Below the pieces are notes generated by a model. It saw nothing but the letters and a program-made list of their open reading frames with translations, made no database searches and was not told the origin of the DNA. The translations under genes and the position numbers were made by a program. Source: Candidatus Heimdallarchaeota archaeon (GTDB lineage Archaea > Asgardarchaeota > Wukongarchaeia > Wukongarchaeales > JBHIFL01). Taken from it: 29,203 nt of DNA. This document shows positions 12,036 to 19,336 of this stretch, piece after piece; within the stretch, counting starts at the first letter, position 1, and the number at the start of each line of letters is the position of its first letter. Location: positions 1-29,203 of the forward strand of contig JBHIFL010000050.1 in NCBI GenBank assembly GCA_046761065.1, given 5' to 3'.

Positions 12036-12349
12036 TCAACTCACAACCAACTATGATACGTGTGCTTTATCGAGCTTAAATTTAAATGGAATTGCGCAAT
12101 TTGGAAATATCCTGAAAAGAATCCAAGAGAAATATCGAAACTTCTTTTTCCGCATCACGTTGTCTGCTCTGTGACTCATCCCATCTGTTTCTGCAATTAC
12201 AACCCTATCGCCTTTGCGTCGGATTATAACCTTGGTTTGTACGTTGGGGCAATATGAGGGCCTAAGTTCTTAGGTTTTTCATAGCTCACCTTATCTCCCT
12301 ACCACAAAATAGCAGAAGGGTTCCCCCGTAACATTTACGGACTTGCCAA

Positions 12350-12370
12350 AAAGCTTTAAACATTTAAATA
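12350..12370 (+). promoter_or_regulatory. Putative BRE/TATA promoter upstream of the structured leader and mptE
   Basis: A-run followed by TTTAAA and TTTAAATA (12363-12370), about 25 nt before the structured region. Confidence 0.45.
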
Positions 12371-12389
12371 CCATATATACAATAATTAT

Positions 12390-12631
12390 TGGGTGATAGA
12401 AACCCATGGATGCGGGAAATACCATGAAACCTGAACTATTGCTCCCCCATCTGTTTCAGTAGCGCTCGTAGGTCTGTCAGGGATAACTCCTGGCCCTGTC
12501 GCGGTGGAAGGTTCTGGGATCCCAGTTAAGCCATCCGCTGCGTGGTGAGTTCCGCATGAGATTACACATCCTCGACTGTATGGATGTAATCTCATTGGAA
12601 AGGGGTTTTTGTGCATCAAGGAGTGAAAAGA
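12390..12631 (+). ncRNA. Candidate structured leader RNA, copy 1 (upstream of mptE)
   Basis: Several hairpins; 12448-12631 aligns without gaps to the reverse complement of 17861-18044. Confidence 0.65.
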
Positions 12632-13417
12632 ATGTCTTGGTACGAGAAAATCGTCACGAGATTATCAATTAACCGCGTAACAGATATAAACGCCGCGAAA
12701 CTTCTCGCTAAGATGGTGGGGGACACATCTAAAGCGTTTAAGGCTTTGAAAGTGGAGGTCCAGGGGAAACCGGTCCTCCTCTTTGGCGCAGGACCTTCTC
12801 TTATTGAAGATTGCATAGTGCTCCAAGATTTACCAAACCGCGCTTGTCCTGTAATTATAGCAGCTGATGGTGCAACAACAGCCCTCCTCGAGAAAGGGGT
12901 TGTCCCCCATCTTATTGTGTCCGACTTGGACGGAAGGATCGAACACCTCATCGAAGCAAACAGAAGGGGAGCATATGTAGCAGTACATGCCCATGGGGAC
13001 AACATCCCGGCCCTGAAAGCGATTATCCCCCAATTGATGCACCTACGCGTCATAGGAACAGTCCAAGTGCCACCAATGCAGGGATTGTATAACTGCGGGG
13101 GCTTTACGGATGGGGATCGAGCTGTCTTTCTCGCAGATGCTCTGGGGGCATCAATCATCATCCTTGCGGGGTTCGACTTAGGGGATCGCGTTGGGCGATA
13201 TTCCGTTCCAACGATCACCACCGATCAAGAGGCCTCCCCCCGGAAGCGACTGAAATTGACAATTGCGAAAGAACTACTCGAAGCGTTTGCAGATCAGTTT
13301 AGCGCTTCTCTTTACAATGTTACCGCTCGTGGAATAGCAATCCAGGGTTTTGAAAGAGTCACGGTTAAGGAACTCATAGGGATCCTCAAAGAGGCTTGTC
13401 AGAAGTCCCAATGGTGA
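12632..13417 (+). CDS. mptE: 6-hydroxymethyl-7,8-dihydropterin diphosphokinase (archaeal MptE)
   Basis: GAGPSL, AADGA, VSDLDG, VHAHGDN, GGFTDGDRA, LAGFD; SD GGAGTGA at 12620-12626. Confidence 0.92.
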   Translation: MSWYEKIVTRLSINRVTDINAAKLLAKMVGDTSKAFKALKVEVQGKPVLLFGAGPSLIEDCIVLQDLPNRACPVIIAADGATTALLEKGVVPHLIVSDLDGRIEHLIEANRRGAYVAVHAHGDNIPALKAIIPQLMHLRVIGTVQVPPMQGLYNCGGFTDGDRAVFLADALGASIIILAGFDLGDRVGRYSVPTITTDQEASPRKRLKLTIAKELLEAFADQFSASLYNVTARGIAIQGFERVTVKELIGILKEACQKSQW

Positions 13418-13889
13418 GCGTGAACGATGCGCCTTGCCCCATGTATTCGGATACTGAACATCGAATTTGTGTTACATTATTTTGAACAATTTTATTTGCT
13501 AAATGAACGGTTAAAAGGCGTGCCAGCTCTTCGATGGTAATGTTAGAAGTCGGAAGGATGCAAACATCCACTTTGGGCAGAATATACTCTTTCCCAGAAA
13601 ACCGGATCCAGACTTCGTCTGCTTTTTCCTCAAGCTTTATGTTTGGATTCTCCCCTGGAATGAGTGTACGATGGTCCCACGCTCCTAAAATCTCTTCCAC
13701 GAGAGGCCGTAATTTGAAGAAGTCGACAACCATTAATTCCTCGTTTTGCTCCCCAAAAACTTCAATTTCAATGGCAAAGTTATGCCCGTGGATCGCCTCC
13801 GAATACCCTTCCCCTACCACAAAGTGGGCCGATGAAATTCTAAAAAACGGAAAACCTTGCGTTACACGAAACACGTTCGAACCATCCAT
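13386..13889 (-). CDS. 6-pyruvoyl-tetrahydropterin synthase family protein, PTPS-III-type motif
   Basis: SSAHF, SEAIHGHNF (E-x2-HGH, no Cys), VDF, WDHR, T.EELA, VSE; 32-bp convergent overlap with mptE. Confidence 0.85.
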   Translation of the reverse strand: MDGSNVFRVTQGFPFFRISSAHFVVGEGYSEAIHGHNFAIEIEVFGEQNEELMVVDFFKLRPLVEEILGAWDHRTLIPGENPNIKLEEKADEVWIRFSGKEYILPKVDVCILPTSNITIEELARLLTVHLANKIVQNNVTQIRCSVSEYMGQGASFTLTIGTSDKPL

Positions 13890-14005
13890 TTTCTTGTTGA
13901 GTGAAATAGAAGGCTCCTTCTTTCCCTATCTCTCGGAGGAGATTACCTCATAACTTTTTCCGCACAGTTCGGCAATCTTTTGAAAAATGCGGTAAGTAGG
14001 AGGAC

Positions 14006-14848
14006 TCACGCATAGGATTCTGGTATTAATTTAGGTAGGAACGTCCTTTTTACTATGTCTCGGACCACTTGATAGGCTTTAGAATCTTCTGGCAACTCTA
14101 ACAATGGTTTTCCCTCAAAGTTGAACTCTTGCACCAAGGGATCAAAGGGCACACTGGCAACAAAAGTCAAGTTATTCATTGCAGCGAATTTCGCGATTTT
14201 CTCTTCAATGTTGCGGCTTTCCAGTCTGTTGGCCACTAGGAAGGTCTTTCCAATCTCAATGTGTACCTTGGGCACTAGTTCGTTGATGCGACGCGCGGTG
14301 TGTAACCCCATCTGCGAGGCATCCGTCACGATATATAACGCATCCAACCTCTTTGCTGTCCGGCGATTCAAATGTTCCAGCCCAGCAACCATATCCATGA
14401 TGGTCAAGGGATAATTTTCCACCGTCGCATCCAGGATTTGCGTCAGCATATTATTGATCATACAATAACAGCCTTCTTTCTCGATCGCTCCCAACGTGAG
14501 GAGATCAAAGTCATCCTCCTCCACCAGTACCCGGAAGACTTGACTCTCCAGCCACCGATTCTTGTCAAATTCTGGGGGCAACTTTAGGATGTTTTTATGC
14601 AACCAATCAGTGGCATCGGCCACTGTTTTCGCATTTTTGACTCCAACCAGATCCGGTACATTCGTCGCAGGATCCGCATCTACCATTAAGATATATTCTA
14701 TTCCTTGCTGAATGAAGGATTTTAACATCAAGACGCTGATGGTGGTTTTCCCCACGCCACCTTTGCCCGCGATAGCAATAATCTGATTGGCTATCCGGGG
14801 TTCCTTGGAGGGGGGTCTAGGAAAAACTCTCTTCATTTTCCACACCAT
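14006..14848 (-). CDS. cooC: CooC/AcsF-type nickel-insertion ATPase
   Basis: AGKGGVGKTT, VDADP..N, EGCYC, DM.AGLEHL.R. Confidence 0.85.
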   Translation of the reverse strand: MVWKMKRVFPRPPSKEPRIANQIIAIAGKGGVGKTTISVLMLKSFIQQGIEYILMVDADPATNVPDLVGVKNAKTVADATDWLHKNILKLPPEFDKNRWLESQVFRVLVEEDDFDLLTLGAIEKEGCYCMINNMLTQILDATVENYPLTIMDMVAGLEHLNRRTAKRLDALYIVTDASQMGLHTARRINELVPKVHIEIGKTFLVANRLESRNIEEKIAKFAAMNNLTFVASVPFDPLVQEFNFEGKPLLELPEDSKAYQVVRDIVKRTFLPKLIPESYA

Positions 14849-14905
14849 AATATCTGTTTGTAGACCTTGAATATTAATGTTGGTACTTATGATTTAACTA
14901 AAACC

Positions 14906-14944
14906 ATAAACTCCTCCTTCCAACGATAAACTCCTCCCCCAACA
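14906..14944. repeat. Imperfect 20-bp tandem duplication upstream of cooC
   Basis: ATAAACTCCTCC at 14906 and 14926. Confidence 0.7.
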
Positions 14945-15100
14945 TGACTATCCCCTATCTTATCTTTATAGTTAAGATGACCCATGAAGCTCTAAGATCA
15001 AGAAGAGAATAAAGCGTCTCTCCAACGTCACCTGCTTATTCATACCTAGTATCAACTACGCTCAAGGCTTATTCGAAATAGGATTAGCCGTTTAAGAGCT

Positions 15101-16993
15101 TTAAGTCATATTTATAAGACTTTCCATATCTCGGGCAGGCACAGCTAGCTCCAGCTCCCGTAGTTTAACTGGAACAGGAATACCCGTCCCCGGGTCGATC
15201 CCACGAATCTGATAGTATTCGAGCAGCATGGGCTCCAGTTCCACCACCTGACCGGCTGTTGCCCCATTTTGAAGAGATTCTTTGAGAAATCTGGTAGGAA
15301 GCGTGTCATCCTTTCTCCGTATGCCCTCGCGCGCATTAAAACATCTTTCAATGTGAATAATTCGCTGAGCTGCCCGGGTAATCTCTTCTACTGTCATTTT
15401 GAGCCCTGTTGTAGCGGTATATAACTCCGCAGCCATTTGAGGATTCAGAATATCCATACACAATCCTATGTTCTTGCAAATGGTCATCGCATCAGTTAGG
15501 GCGGCAATTTCTTCCGTGTAACTAACAAGCACTCCTTTCCCCTTGAATTCAAGCCGATCTGCAATTTCACGAATGCCCCAGCGATTTTCTGCCATTTCGA
15601 AGTCATTCGTCAGTTCAAAAAAAGGCTCAGCCCGTAAATGGTCCCCGCCACGAGTCGCAATCGCATATGTTAATCCATACCCTTTAATCCCCCTAGGGTC
15701 CCCACAAATAAGCTCTAACCCTTTCGTATGAAATGCATATTTCTCAGATCCTTTTCCAATGAGTTCTGCGGCCCTCCGAACTCCATGAGCAAGCGTTTCC
15801 CCAAAGCCGGTCCGAGTGACAATCCAGGTCGTTAGAGTCTCGATCGTTTCCTTATTCCCCCAAGTGAGTTCAAGACCTCCCACATCCTTCTTGGTCAAGA
15901 TCCCTTTCTCATAGCACTCCATCACAAATCCAATGACCTCAGACGTCGTAATCGAATCAAGCCCCATCTTATTCACAAAGTTATTCATATGAAGAACAAA
16001 CTGCAAGTCCTTATTTCCCAGTCGCGAGCTAAAGCCACATTGCGTTTCGTACTCTGGGCCTTCACCTCGTGTACCGATGTAGGAACCCTCGTTTATCACG
16101 TAATAACGACTACAATGAACGGGGCACGCAAAACACGACTTTTGCTTCACATTATAAAGGCGTTGAAGCGTCTCCCCACTTACCGTGTCAGCGAATTCGA
16201 AGACCCCTTCTTTGAAGTGTCGGGTTGGGAGGATCCCCAGTTTATTCAGGGCGCTTACGAGTTGTGTCGTTCCTAGTTGAGCCCGACGTTCGTAACCCGG
16301 GTGAGTTAGCACTTGTTGTTTAAAGTTCTCGGCTAATTCATGGAACCGCTGCGGGGCTGCTACACTGATCGTTCCAGTTCCGCGAATCGCCAAGGCTTTT
16401 AAGTTCTTCCCCCCCATTATGGTTCCCATTCCGGCTCTCCCCGCCACCCGGGTGAGATTCGCTGCTATAATCGCGTATTTAACCCCATTCTCTCCTGCAG
16501 GGCCTATGCACGCCACTTGAATTCGCTGATCGTTGTGATCCCTCCGAATAACACGATGGGTTTCCCAAATATCTGTCCCCCATAGATGTACGGCATCAAG
16601 TATCTGTATCTCTTTGTCTTGAATGAAAATATAGCAGGGTTTCGGGGCTTTTCCAGAAATAATAATCTGGTCATACCCCGCATATTTCATCTCCGGGGCA
16701 AAATGCCCTCCCGCATTTGAATCGCCAAATATCCCTGTCAAAGGCGACTTCGCAGTGACTGTGAAGCGTGAGGCGCATGGAAAAGCCGTTCCATTTAGGG
16801 GACCCATCCCAAACATCAACAAATTCTCTGGGGACATGGGATCAGTATTTGAAGATACTTCATGATACATGATCATGGAGTTGAATCCGCGGCCGCCCAC
16901 CCACTTTCTCGCGAATTCCTCTTCCAATATCACTTGTTTGATCTTCCTGCGAGTTAGATCAATTCTCAAGATGGTTCCTGCATACCCAAACAT
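15101..16993 (-). CDS. aor: Tungsten aldehyde:ferredoxin oxidoreductase family protein
   Basis: KSPLTG, IGPAGE, GRAGMG..MGGKNLKA, CFACPVHC, GPEYET, GLDSI, RGGDH. Confidence 0.95.
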   Translation of the reverse strand: MFGYAGTILRIDLTRRKIKQVILEEEFARKWVGGRGFNSMIMYHEVSSNTDPMSPENLLMFGMGPLNGTAFPCASRFTVTAKSPLTGIFGDSNAGGHFAPEMKYAGYDQIIISGKAPKPCYIFIQDKEIQILDAVHLWGTDIWETHRVIRRDHNDQRIQVACIGPAGENGVKYAIIAANLTRVAGRAGMGTIMGGKNLKALAIRGTGTISVAAPQRFHELAENFKQQVLTHPGYERRAQLGTTQLVSALNKLGILPTRHFKEGVFEFADTVSGETLQRLYNVKQKSCFACPVHCSRYYVINEGSYIGTRGEGPEYETQCGFSSRLGNKDLQFVLHMNNFVNKMGLDSITTSEVIGFVMECYEKGILTKKDVGGLELTWGNKETIETLTTWIVTRTGFGETLAHGVRRAAELIGKGSEKYAFHTKGLELICGDPRGIKGYGLTYAIATRGGDHLRAEPFFELTNDFEMAENRWGIREIADRLEFKGKGVLVSYTEEIAALTDAMTICKNIGLCMDILNPQMAAELYTATTGLKMTVEEITRAAQRIIHIERCFNAREGIRRKDDTLPTRFLKESLQNGATAGQVVELEPMLLEYYQIRGIDPGTGIPVPVKLRELELAVPARDMESLINMT

Positions 16994-16997
16994 CGCT

Positions 16998-17513
16998 TTA
17001 GTCCCCTCTTACCTCTTTGATCTTGTTTAAATCAATCCCCCAAGAATTGAGCAATGAGTGTGCTAAGTTTAACGCTGTATTTTGTCGAATTCGATTGATA
17101 TACCCATTTAGGGATTCGAACCAGATCGCTCCGGTGTCGCAAGCCGCCACACAGGCAGGACTGCCTCCACACAAATCACAGACAAGACTCTTTCCCTCGG
17201 TGGGATGTAGGTGCAACGCGCCAATCGGGCAGTTTTCTATACAAATTCCACACCCAATACAAGCTTCCCACGCAACTAATGTTGCGCCCGTTGTTTCATC
17301 GATGGATAGTGCCGATTTCGGACATGAAGGCACACAGGGGTGGTTTTCACATTGGCGACAAACAATTGGGGCATCTACCCCAAGATTCTCTAATTTCATG
17401 ACCTGAATGCGGGAGATGCTGCTGCCGTAACGCCCTTCATGCGCAAAAGAACAGGCCAGTTCACAGCGCCTGCAGCCTGTACATTTTGAGAGATCGAGTA
17501 AAATCTTCTTCAT
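16998..17513 (-). CDS. 4Fe-4S dicluster ferredoxin-like subunit (AOR partner)
   Basis: CTGCRRCELAC, CRQC..HPCVPSCP, CIGCGICIENCP, CDLCGGSPACVAAC; likely start MKKILLD at 17513. Confidence 0.92.
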   Translation of the reverse strand: MKKILLDLSKCTGCRRCELACSFAHEGRYGSSISRIQVMKLENLGVDAPIVCRQCENHPCVPSCPKSALSIDETTGATLVAWEACIGCGICIENCPIGALHLHPTEGKSLVCDLCGGSPACVAACDTGAIWFESLNGYINRIRQNTALNLAHSLLNSWGIDLNKIKEVRGD

Positions 17514-17551
17514 TGTTTGAACACCGACACATGATTCACACATTCCTCCAC

Positions 17552-17860
17552 CTAGTCCTCGTCCCAATCTTCAATTGTTTCATCCCCGACATCTTCGTAT
17601 TCTCGAATTTCAAAGATTAATTGACCTTCAGGATCGGGGCACATCACGCGATTGACACGTGGCAACCAATCATTCCCTTCTTCTGTTATGATTCGTTCTT
17701 TGGCAGGGATTAGAGGGAGAATGCTGTTCAGCGCATAGAGGCAAATGTGTTTATTCTTCGGCAGATAGATCGTTCCTTTTCTCACCTCGAACTGATCCCC
17801 CACCTTATGTTTCCAGCACTTTCCCCGCTTTTCCACACACTCCACGACTAATCGTCTCAT
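17552..17860 (-). CDS. TIGR04076 family protein
   Basis: GKC..HKVGDQF, ICLYAL.SILP, CPDP. Confidence 0.85.
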   Translation of the reverse strand: MRRLVVECVEKRGKCWKHKVGDQFEVRKGTIYLPKNKHICLYALNSILPLIPAKERIITEEGNDWLPRVNRVMCPDPEGQLIFEIREYEDVGDETIEDWDED

Positions 17861-18145
17861 GTTTTTCGCTCCTTAATGCATAAATACTTCATTCCAAGGA
17901 GTTTGTGTCCACACCGCCGAGTAAAAGTTATTTCGTAAGGGATTCGCCACGAAAATAATGGCTAATCTTGATCCCCAAGATCCTCCGTCTCGACAGGGTT
18001 AGGAGTTGCACCTAGCTATCCCGTGAGTGCTGCCGAAGCAGGTAGCACCTTAGGAAAGGGATGACTGCCTGGACATCGCCGAGCTTCCCTAGCACCAAGG
18101 CGGCTCGCACTCGAACCCCGAAATGGTCATCTTCTGGCAGCACCT
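17861..18145 (-). ncRNA. Candidate structured leader RNA, copy 2 (upstream of the TIGR04076-4Fe4S-aor operon)
   Basis: Homologous to copy 1; cUUCGg tetraloop; UAGG-UGCAACU-CCUA T-loop-like hairpin; several further stems. Confidence 0.65.
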
Positions 18146-18311
18146 GAATAAGTTTATTAGGGATACCTATGAGTACCAATAAGGTTACTAATGATGAAAG
18201 TGGTGGGGATGGAAGGTTCCTTTTAATTACGACAAATTAAAGGAAAGAGGGACTGGGATCACTACGGGCACGACCCCGCCACTCCGTGAAACCATAGAGG
18301 AGCAGGATTCA

Positions 18312-18986
18312 TTGCTAGAGATAATTCTCTGGATAGTTGCTATCTTGGTACTTCTCGGGATCTTCAGCAGATTATCCCGCATAATCTTGAAGAAATATTT
18401 CCAAAAGGAAGCTTATTTGACGGTCGGAGATAGAGGTATTGCATTTGTTGGTCGGGCGCTTGACAGCCGTGTTCGGAAATGGCTGCAACCTCCCAGAGCA
18501 GTGATTGATTGGGTCGCCATTCATGAAGGGATGCAAGTATTAGAAGTCGGGGCAGGGTCTGGAACATATACAACTGAGGCTGCGAGGCGGCTGGGGGATG
18601 GAAAAGGTACCGTTCATGCTATAGATATACACCCAGGCATGATTAAACTACTCGAGAAAAAGTTGCAAAAGGAACAAATCACCAACGTGACGGTAACAGT
18701 AGCGTCAGCCTGTGACCTTCCCTTCTTGGACAAGTCATTCGACCGTGTTTTCATGATTACGGTCCTGGCGGAAATTCTCAACCGGCAAAAAGCCCTCCTC
18801 GAAATCAGTCATGTGCTAAAAGATGATGGATTATTAGCAGTAGGCGAATTTCTACCTGACGCAGACTATCCCTTGCGGAGAACCGTCATTCGCTGGTGCA
18901 AAGAAGCTGGGTTCGAATTAGTGGATAAATATGGAAGGATTATGCACTACGTACTAACATTTCAGAAGACAACGTCAGATCATTAA
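18312..18986 (+). CDS. Class I SAM-dependent methyltransferase (UbiE-like) with N-terminal TM helix
   Basis: VLEVGAGSG, HAIDI, LPF....FDRVF, VLK..G. Confidence 0.85.
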   Translation: MLEIILWIVAILVLLGIFSRLSRIILKKYFQKEAYLTVGDRGIAFVGRALDSRVRKWLQPPRAVIDWVAIHEGMQVLEVGAGSGTYTTEAARRLGDGKGTVHAIDIHPGMIKLLEKKLQKEQITNVTVTVASACDLPFLDKSFDRVFMITVLAEILNRQKALLEISHVLKDDGLLAVGEFLPDADYPLRRTVIRWCKEAGFELVDKYGRIMHYVLTFQKTTSDH

Positions 18987-19336
18987 GCAGTTAAAATTGA
19001 TCTAACAGTCGTGGCTAATGATCTACTTCTTTTTTCACTGGGGAAGATGTTTTTCTGTATTCTGTATAGAGATCCCTCTCAAAATGCTATTCTTATTGAA
19101 AAACCCAATCAAGGTCAAAGTCCTACCCTCCAAAATGAGTCCTAGAAACCTTGGTCACAGAGGAGGTAACCGGTGGATGACGGTAACCAACAGTGGAGAG
19201 CTGTCACCGAGGCTGTGGCTATGGTAATCCTCTAAATAAACCATGGTTAGGAGTTTCAACACAAGGCGATAAGACAATTTTATTAAAAAAAGGAACGAGT
19301 GACTGGAATCTGACGGACGTGGTCTCACTGGTCGAT

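Follow-up and report, generated by a model that had tools for sequence, protein, structure and literature searches.

An RNA unit that ends ARAMP elements and abuts host gene starts in an Asgard archaeon is probably a guide-RNA scaffold

Introduction

Structured RNAs that overlap the end of a nuclease gene at the end of a mobile element are known from IS200/IS605 elements, as TnpB reRNA and IscB omega-RNA. In TnpB systems, flanking DNA serves as the guide, with homing to empty alleles as the consequence; omega-RNAs have a Shine-Dalgarno (SD) sequence at their end. Here we describe a unit of comparable placement, two copies of which lie in a 29,203-nucleotide stretch of DNA from Candidatus Heimdallarchaeota archaeon (contig JBHIFL010000050.1 of assembly GCA_046761065.1; the window). 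The element to which it belongs corresponds to the system named ARAMP, reportedly short for Asgard RAMP and said to go back to Makarova et al. in 2020. The unit differs from the TnpB and IscB RNAs in its protein partners, which are class 1 RAMPs, HD and Cas1 proteins, not RuvC/HNH or TnpA, and from omega-RNA in that the downstream genes are host genes and not iscB.

ARAMP was named from its gene content, and its mechanism is called enigmatic in the review PMC8730458 because Cas7, a second RAMP and Cas1 occur without an array. The gene set given there (an Asgard host, a Cas7-like protein and a second RAMP, nucleases, a distinct Cas1 and no array) matches the element on contig C36 described below, and the review mentions no RNA partner, multicopy dispersal or host start-codon capture. 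HRAMP, in the same source, is similar in its array-less Cas5/Cas7 homologues with nucleases, but it is haloarchaeal, and Cas1 and RNA are not given for it there. Homing guides of CRISPR-associated transposons and repeat-like regulatory mini-arrays provide guides outside arrays, directed at conserved host genes or the cas promoter (PMC9881144; bioRxiv 10.1101/2023.03.03.530964), and the tolerance of these guides for every sixth mismatch is paralleled in a sister ARAMP family; the ARAMP RNA, in contrast, is a putative scaffold of 130-200 nt and not a short repeat, the element has no Tns proteins, and the integrase candidate is Cas1. Casposons (6OPM casposase) also carry a Cas1-fold protein on a mobile element, whereas the C36 element shows no PolB among the genes seen and adds RAMP genes and an RNA. 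VIPR (bioRxiv 10.64898/2026.04.26.720920) is likewise an array-less RAMP system with a flanking non-coding RNA, but its vrRNAs are GGY/NN tandem repeats in viruses, whereas the unit belongs to cellular chromosomes and its RNA has several stems. The system already has a name; its RNA module and start-codon capture are not described in the literature searched, which did not extend to the original ARAMP paper.

Results

Two copies of the unit in the window

The two window copies lie on opposite strands and were scored with a covariance model built from the unit copies.

12435..12634 (+): copy 1 of the structured unit associated with ARAMP, about 200 nt; covariance model 157.6 bits; missing at loci L192-L194; its 3' end carries an SD sequence plus a non-native ATG
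12478..12492 (+): T-loop-like hairpin of copy 1, helix 3
12620..12623 (+): SD sequence GGAG from the unit, copy 1, read from the sequence
17858..18057 (-): copy 2 of the unit; covariance model 186 bits; joined to the native ATG of the operon for TIGR04076, 4Fe-4S and aldehyde:ferredoxin oxidoreductase (AOR) proteins
17869..17872 (-): SD sequence GGAG of copy 2, read from the sequence; intact in decayed orthologous copies too

An earlier note, made from the letters of this DNA alone, had described a duplicated leader with gapless similarity and, in its 5' part, mismatches that are mostly transitions and lack codon periodicity, and direct alignment within the window agreed: 12448-12631 (+) and 18044-17861 (-) share 118/184 bases with zero gaps and differ by 44 transitions and 22 transversions, the mismatches falling 25/22/19 by codon position. 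Background 184-nt diagonals in the window had a mean of 46±6 identities and a maximum of 75. The repeat is therefore real, although it is not one pair but belongs to a family of about 45 copies. The looser similarity that the note had followed out to 12390/18100 is not homology; the unit starts at about 12435/18057, the flank of copy 1 is an ARAMP promoter segment, and that of copy 2, judged by eye, is a HEAT-repeat fragment. Both copies do stop at an ATG (12632 and 17860), as had been noticed, but the ATG at 12632 is not the native mptE start.

A dispersed family with a fixed 3' end

Iterated nhmmer searches revealed the ~45 copies of the unit in a genome of 4.4 Mb. The 3' end shifts by no more than a few bases, while the upstream side is variable, many copies retaining 0 to 2075 nt of an upstream open reading frame (ORF) with HD motifs. 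Genes downstream of the units include those for GMP synthase, DUF47, a cyclophilin-like protein, fumarase, eL20, an aminotransferase and XPD helicase, and convergent neighbours include gamma-glutamyltransferase and Fae-HPS. The wider copy search and table of downstream genes that the earlier note had proposed thus yielded unrelated genes and convergent stops, contrary to a riboswitch.

An intact 3' end is retained by 40 own copies, of which 11 lie at a start codon, five lie at a convergent stop codon, three are in-frame fusions and 21 fall elsewhere; a start or convergent stop is thus abutted by 16/40 own copies, compared with 32/1500 random intergenic positions, in counts that rest on simple ORF-scan gene calling and on related, non-independent copies. 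GGAG was retained in 22/22 start-abutting copies and in 15/47 others (Fisher P=2e-8; copies not independent), indicating that the SD sequence is selected where the host gene uses it. A model search found the unit in 1/150 other genomes of the phylum that were searched. The core pattern of the unit had no match in viral contigs, and pattern matches in genome contigs were mostly chance.

Contigs C115, C131, C87, C164, C149 and the end of C1 of this genome contain as many as six degraded units in 10 kb, mixed with accessory and toxin-antitoxin-like genes (PIN, DUF433 and DUF5615, by motif), and these stretches resemble a cassette array. At L140:1439-1878, two units stand in tandem with about 62 nt between them, followed by a host ATG, in a mini-array-like arrangement for which no target was found.

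The ARAMP element that carries the unit

On contig C36, one strand encodes, in order, a phosphoesterase, a DEAH helicase and a 1473-residue protein, and the divergent side comprises a unit copy, a 555-residue nuclease-SAP-Cas7 protein, a 313-residue RAMP-HD protein, a second unit copy and the host XPD gene. This arrangement was backed by contigs from other samples of the same study. Full elements in general follow this order, with a Cas1-fold protein of ~1400 residues after the helicase and, on the divergent side, nuclease-Cas7, RAMP-HD and the terminal unit. The 555-residue protein was recognized as a diverged Cas7 by matches to Pfam RAMPs (E=0.011), PADLOC Csm3 (E=0.005), and Cas7-11 and type VII Cas7 profiles (E=2e-4 to 7e-4). 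The C-terminal 444 residues of the 1473-residue protein fold as Cas1 (predicted local distance difference test score, pLDDT, 82; Foldseek E=3e-8) and the protein matches a casposase profile (E=5.5e-4); ESM Atlas gave no usable match for this giant Cas1 protein. The 313-residue protein combines a RAMP fold (model pLDDT 86, resembling type III/VII RAMP chains, in a structure match that does not tell Cas5, Cas6 and Cas7 apart) with HD motifs, for which the profile match is weak (E=0.075) and the H/D residues are invariant. No CRISPR array, tandem repeats or regularly spaced repeats were found in the 17-kb C36 locus, nor were terminal inverted repeats or a target-site duplication, the left end being unmapped against an empty allele. 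We consider it highly likely that the unit is a structured RNA module ending the 3' (right) side of mobile ARAMP elements.

Homologues carry the NCBI labels Heimdallarchaeota/Hodarchaeota, and genome G010 of the same phylum matches the Ca. Sifarchaeum contig; a gene search in GTDB contigs found nothing. Excision between the two unit copies of C36 was considered and rejected, as the observed joints stem from paralogous copies.

Further observations concern the architecture of these elements. Past the phosphoesterase gene of C36, at L137:4599-4790, a short palindromic motif with the core TAGACCTCTACA recurs four or five times at irregular intervals, at the likely left end of the element; its copies are candidate integrase-binding sites. 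In the Cas7 at L024:3846-5513, a SAP domain is inserted (E=6e-5) and the N-terminal part is a nuclease-like domain, which has its own gene in L057 and L059. At L059:1855-3378, the element is interrupted by an RRXRR/HNH (IscB-like) gene. A second ARAMP subtype without the unit occurs on contig C12 of this genome (L136), and in L057 a C12-type left half is joined to a C36-type Cas7/RAMP-HD/unit module, a chimera that suggests module swapping at the cas7 start.

Insertion at mptE and moving junctions elsewhere

Comparison with orthologous loci delimited the insertion that brought copy 1.

12135..12634 (+): whole insert at mptE; homology to the empty allele L194 ends at 12134 and resumes at 12635
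12278..12431 (+): ARAMP divergent-promoter segment that came with copy 1; 75% identity to the segment before the nuclease-Cas7 gene of C36
12632..13417 (+): mptE, which lacks nine N-terminal codons present in its orthologues; PF01973 E=1e-28

The three orthologous mptE loci L192-L194 (77-80% protein identity) lack the unit, and the MptE proteins of relatives are nine residues longer at the N-terminus. The 500-bp insert took the place of some 60 bp of the native leader together with nine codons at the start of mptE (about 90 bp lost), so the ATG at 12632 is not the native start; mptE now has an SD sequence and an ATG supplied by the unit. The promoter segment is 81-86% identical over shorter stretches to L060 and L065 and contains a B recognition element/TATA-like element at 12350-12370. 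An orthologue of copy 2 is found at the same junction in L195-L197 with broken stems and an intact SD sequence, whereas the AOR-operon locus of the more distant L198 lacks it. As judged from these orthologous sequences, copy 2 is an older insertion than copy 1.

The right junction shifts between close relatives. L057 and L059 contain the same element (92-96% identical) with different right junctions: the unit of L057 joins a radical-SAM gene, while that of L059, 2.66 kb further on, joins codon 6 of an AstE-like gene and supplies its ATG, so that 2.66 kb and five codons are lost relative to L057. At the fumarase gene, 380 bp separate unit and gene in L060, and in C9 the two are fused at an ATG. 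Full elements occur in relatives at ychF, at the fumarase gene and at a cyclophilin-like gene, where this genome has short remnants, indicating erosion after insertion. A lone unit copy in L060 replaced about 95 nt of the nuclease-Cas7 linker. Orthologous unit copies persist across species at ychF, eL20 and the AOR operon. The own-genome unit tails showed no second genomic target above chance.

Structure of the unit

A seven-helix model over 25 copies had 92.8% of cells paired, as against 32-45% in slid controls, and no shuffle matched the real alignment. Compensatory changes on both sides were seen in 17/37 pairs (one column pair is A-U in 8 copies, C-G in 8 and U-A in 5), in covariation tests that are inflated by the relatedness of the copies. 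The covariation is real, and it tolerates G-U on one strand, which fits an RNA. Two of the four hairpins first proposed were retained, namely the T-loop hairpin (96% paired, three pairs changed on both sides) and the GCCA/UGGU stem (95% paired). The other two gave way to longer-range stems: the CUGUC segment pairs with upstream sequence and not with its proposed partner, and the CUGG/CUUG segment pairs long-range in a stem in which 7/7 pairs covary. Next to two of the stems, tandem GA steps resemble kink-turns.

The Rfam scan, at gathering and E-value thresholds, returned chance matches only, and no family was assigned. Omega-RNA, HEARO and reRNA were rejected on this ground and because the adjoining genes are RAMP-HD and host genes. 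One copy resembles a hammerhead core, but stem I is missing and this candidate was dismissed by inspection. Decayed coding sequence, against which the earlier note had asked for a check, accounts for part of the unit at most: some HD genes read through its first ~25 codons (tblastn E=3e-4, 12446-12514), with a pLDDT under 50 for that tail, but no frame is open across all copies and the HD-gene stop positions vary.

Guide-like tails in a sister family

Evidence for guiding comes from a sister family (G040/G057) with at least ten Cas7 plus RAMP-HD modules, at least six of which include a helicase-Cas1 gene; every module ends at an RNA unit of ~130 nt that differs from the window unit. Six or more full elements have different flanks, and their homology stops at the RNA unit. 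Tails of internal units match their own cas7 promoter at 19-24/24 bases. Of the mismatches between tail and cas7 promoter, 30/39 fall on one six-base phase, and 6/6 phase positions carry mismatches compared with 5/29 others. Cas7 filaments leave every sixth base unpaired (PMC9881144), and guides directed at cas promoters exist (bioRxiv 10.1101/2023.03.03.530964). Of the nine further tails tested, four match host genes that lie a short way downstream, with P<=0.007 in each case and wobble changes in the matches.

Some end units at L125, L127 and L129 (G040) are preceded, about 25 nt upstream, by a TATA-like box of their own and followed, after the guide-like tail, by a hairpin; these resemble stand-alone small RNA genes.

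Neighbouring features of the window

Two further features flank copy 2.

15101..17860 (-): TIGR04076, 4Fe-4S and aldehyde:ferredoxin oxidoreductase genes downstream of copy 2, host or cargo; Pfam and source name
18045..18160 (-): HEAT-repeat-like coding fragment at the 5' junction of copy 2, outside the unit; translation by eye

Pfam supported the earlier annotations of MptE, 4Fe-4S and AOR; TIGR04076 is the source's name on a 90% homologue. The HEAT-like fragment is common to L195-L197 and has no match with the adjacent HEAT gene of the window. At 14883-19253, the AOR operon and copy 2 are missing from that position in L192/L193, in which the ParA, HEAT and AlkZ-like genes adjoin each other, and the block seems to have moved as one piece. 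At 13386-13889, a PTPS-family gene is convergent with mptE and overlaps its 3' end, an arrangement kept in L192-L194.

Discussion

The unit is probably the guide-RNA scaffold of ARAMP. In the reading that we prefer, its RNA would be bound by Cas7 and RAMP-HD, and the 30-40 nt transcribed 3' of it would serve as guide, as in TnpB RNAs. The complex would mark or cut the matching gene end, and copying-in from the guide side, by repair or by Cas1-catalysed joining, would make the right junction precise and the left junction variable and would delete part of the target. Surviving junctions would be those at which the host gene still works, either against a convergent stop codon or at the N-terminus or slightly within it; in the N-terminal cases the gene start would be rebuilt by the SD sequence and ATG of the unit or by its in-frame GTG at -20. 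The window copies may be such remnants, now kept mainly as leaders of mptE and the AOR operon. We assign this reading as a whole a probability of roughly 0.6. Taken by itself, a guide mechanism for the unit is what we lean towards slightly; that ARAMP is an RNA-guided, Cas1-based mobile element, in which a 3' guide from flanking host DNA steers insertion to the ends of housekeeping genes and the SD sequence and start codon of the scaffold rebuild the gene, is a tentative proposal that we hold at somewhat short of even odds.

Several observations weigh against the guide step in the window family, which we infer from the sister family. The RNA of that family has no detectable homology to the window unit, so the evidence consists of position and protein homology (27-33% identity). 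No unfused tail of the window family has a convincing target, and its tails are mostly the host gene itself. The L060 tail looks like codons 11-19 of the gene that follows it, but a chance match of equal score occurs in that region; mismatches at the L059 junction fall at positions 5, 11, 17 and 29, a six-base pattern with P about 0.05. Guide-like matches with sixth-base tolerance are seen in the sister family, with weak hints in the window family. No target-site duplication accompanies the own-genome tails, and the boundary counts come from simple gene calling on related copies.

Many of these points would be accommodated if the unit acted as the right element end at the level of DNA, or as a guide-free RNA, that the giant Cas1 joins to new sites, followed by a ratchet of adjacent deletions that selection halts at the first essential codon, the SD sequence allowing it to reach the ATG. 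Such a ratchet would explain the fixed 3' end, right junctions shifted between close relatives, abutment at starts as well as convergent stops, unfused tails without a target and the cassette-like arrays of degraded copies. We nevertheless regard it as unlikely, though a serious competitor, since G-U-tolerant covariation on one strand suits an RNA, and the six-base-phased matches of the sister family and the retention of Cas7 are left unexplained. The fixed 3' end with variable 5' truncation would also suit SINE-like (short interspersed element-like) retrocopies, in which reverse transcription of the 3' end of a cas7-HD-unit transcript would be followed by insertion. This is improbable: the 91%-complete genome has no RVT_1 (PF00078) match, with positive controls, the copies have no target duplications or A-tails, relatives have full elements at ychF, the fumarase gene and the cyclophilin-like gene, and copy 1 contains promoter DNA upstream of the likely transcript start.

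Host function offers two other explanations. Retention of the SD sequence at starts and the persistence of orthologous copies at ychF, eL20 and the AOR operon would be expected of a domesticated translation or stability leader selected for host regulation, for example bound by L7Ae via the kink-turn-like loops, but in L195-L197 the stems decay while the SD sequence stays, empty alleles are viable, and convergent and intergenic copies exist, leaving this equally improbable. We give least credence, and very little, to a riboswitch sensing a pterin, molybdenum or tungsten cofactor or GTP, the first of two possibilities raised by the earlier note. Both window copies precede pterin-linked genes and are structured with a T-loop-like hairpin, and mch and guaA are among the other downstream genes; the distribution of the unit refutes this reading, however: most downstream genes are unrelated and form no single pathway, five own copies face stop codons, the orthologous mptE and AOR leaders lack the unit (L192-L194, L198), only 1/150 other genomes searched in the phylum has it, and it is always traceable to the end of an HD gene. 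The second possibility, that a leader and SD sequence are brought in by a mobile non-coding cassette, is upheld, the cassette being the 3' end of the Cas1/Cas7/RAMP-HD element.

A tempting riboswitch call is thereby corrected, and the consequence for the host is visible in the window, where an element end took over the promoter region, SD sequence and start codon of a cofactor gene. With a ~200-nt RNA of covarying stems, a mapped 3' junction and filled and empty alleles, the ARAMP ribonucleoprotein, its guiding and Cas1 integration become testable. If ARAMP is indeed an RNA-guided, Cas1-based mobile element, it would represent a route of RNA-guided integration distinct from that of Tn7-CAST (CRISPR-associated transposons) and IS110, and one by which the leaders and N-termini of host genes are rewritten throughout an Asgard genome.

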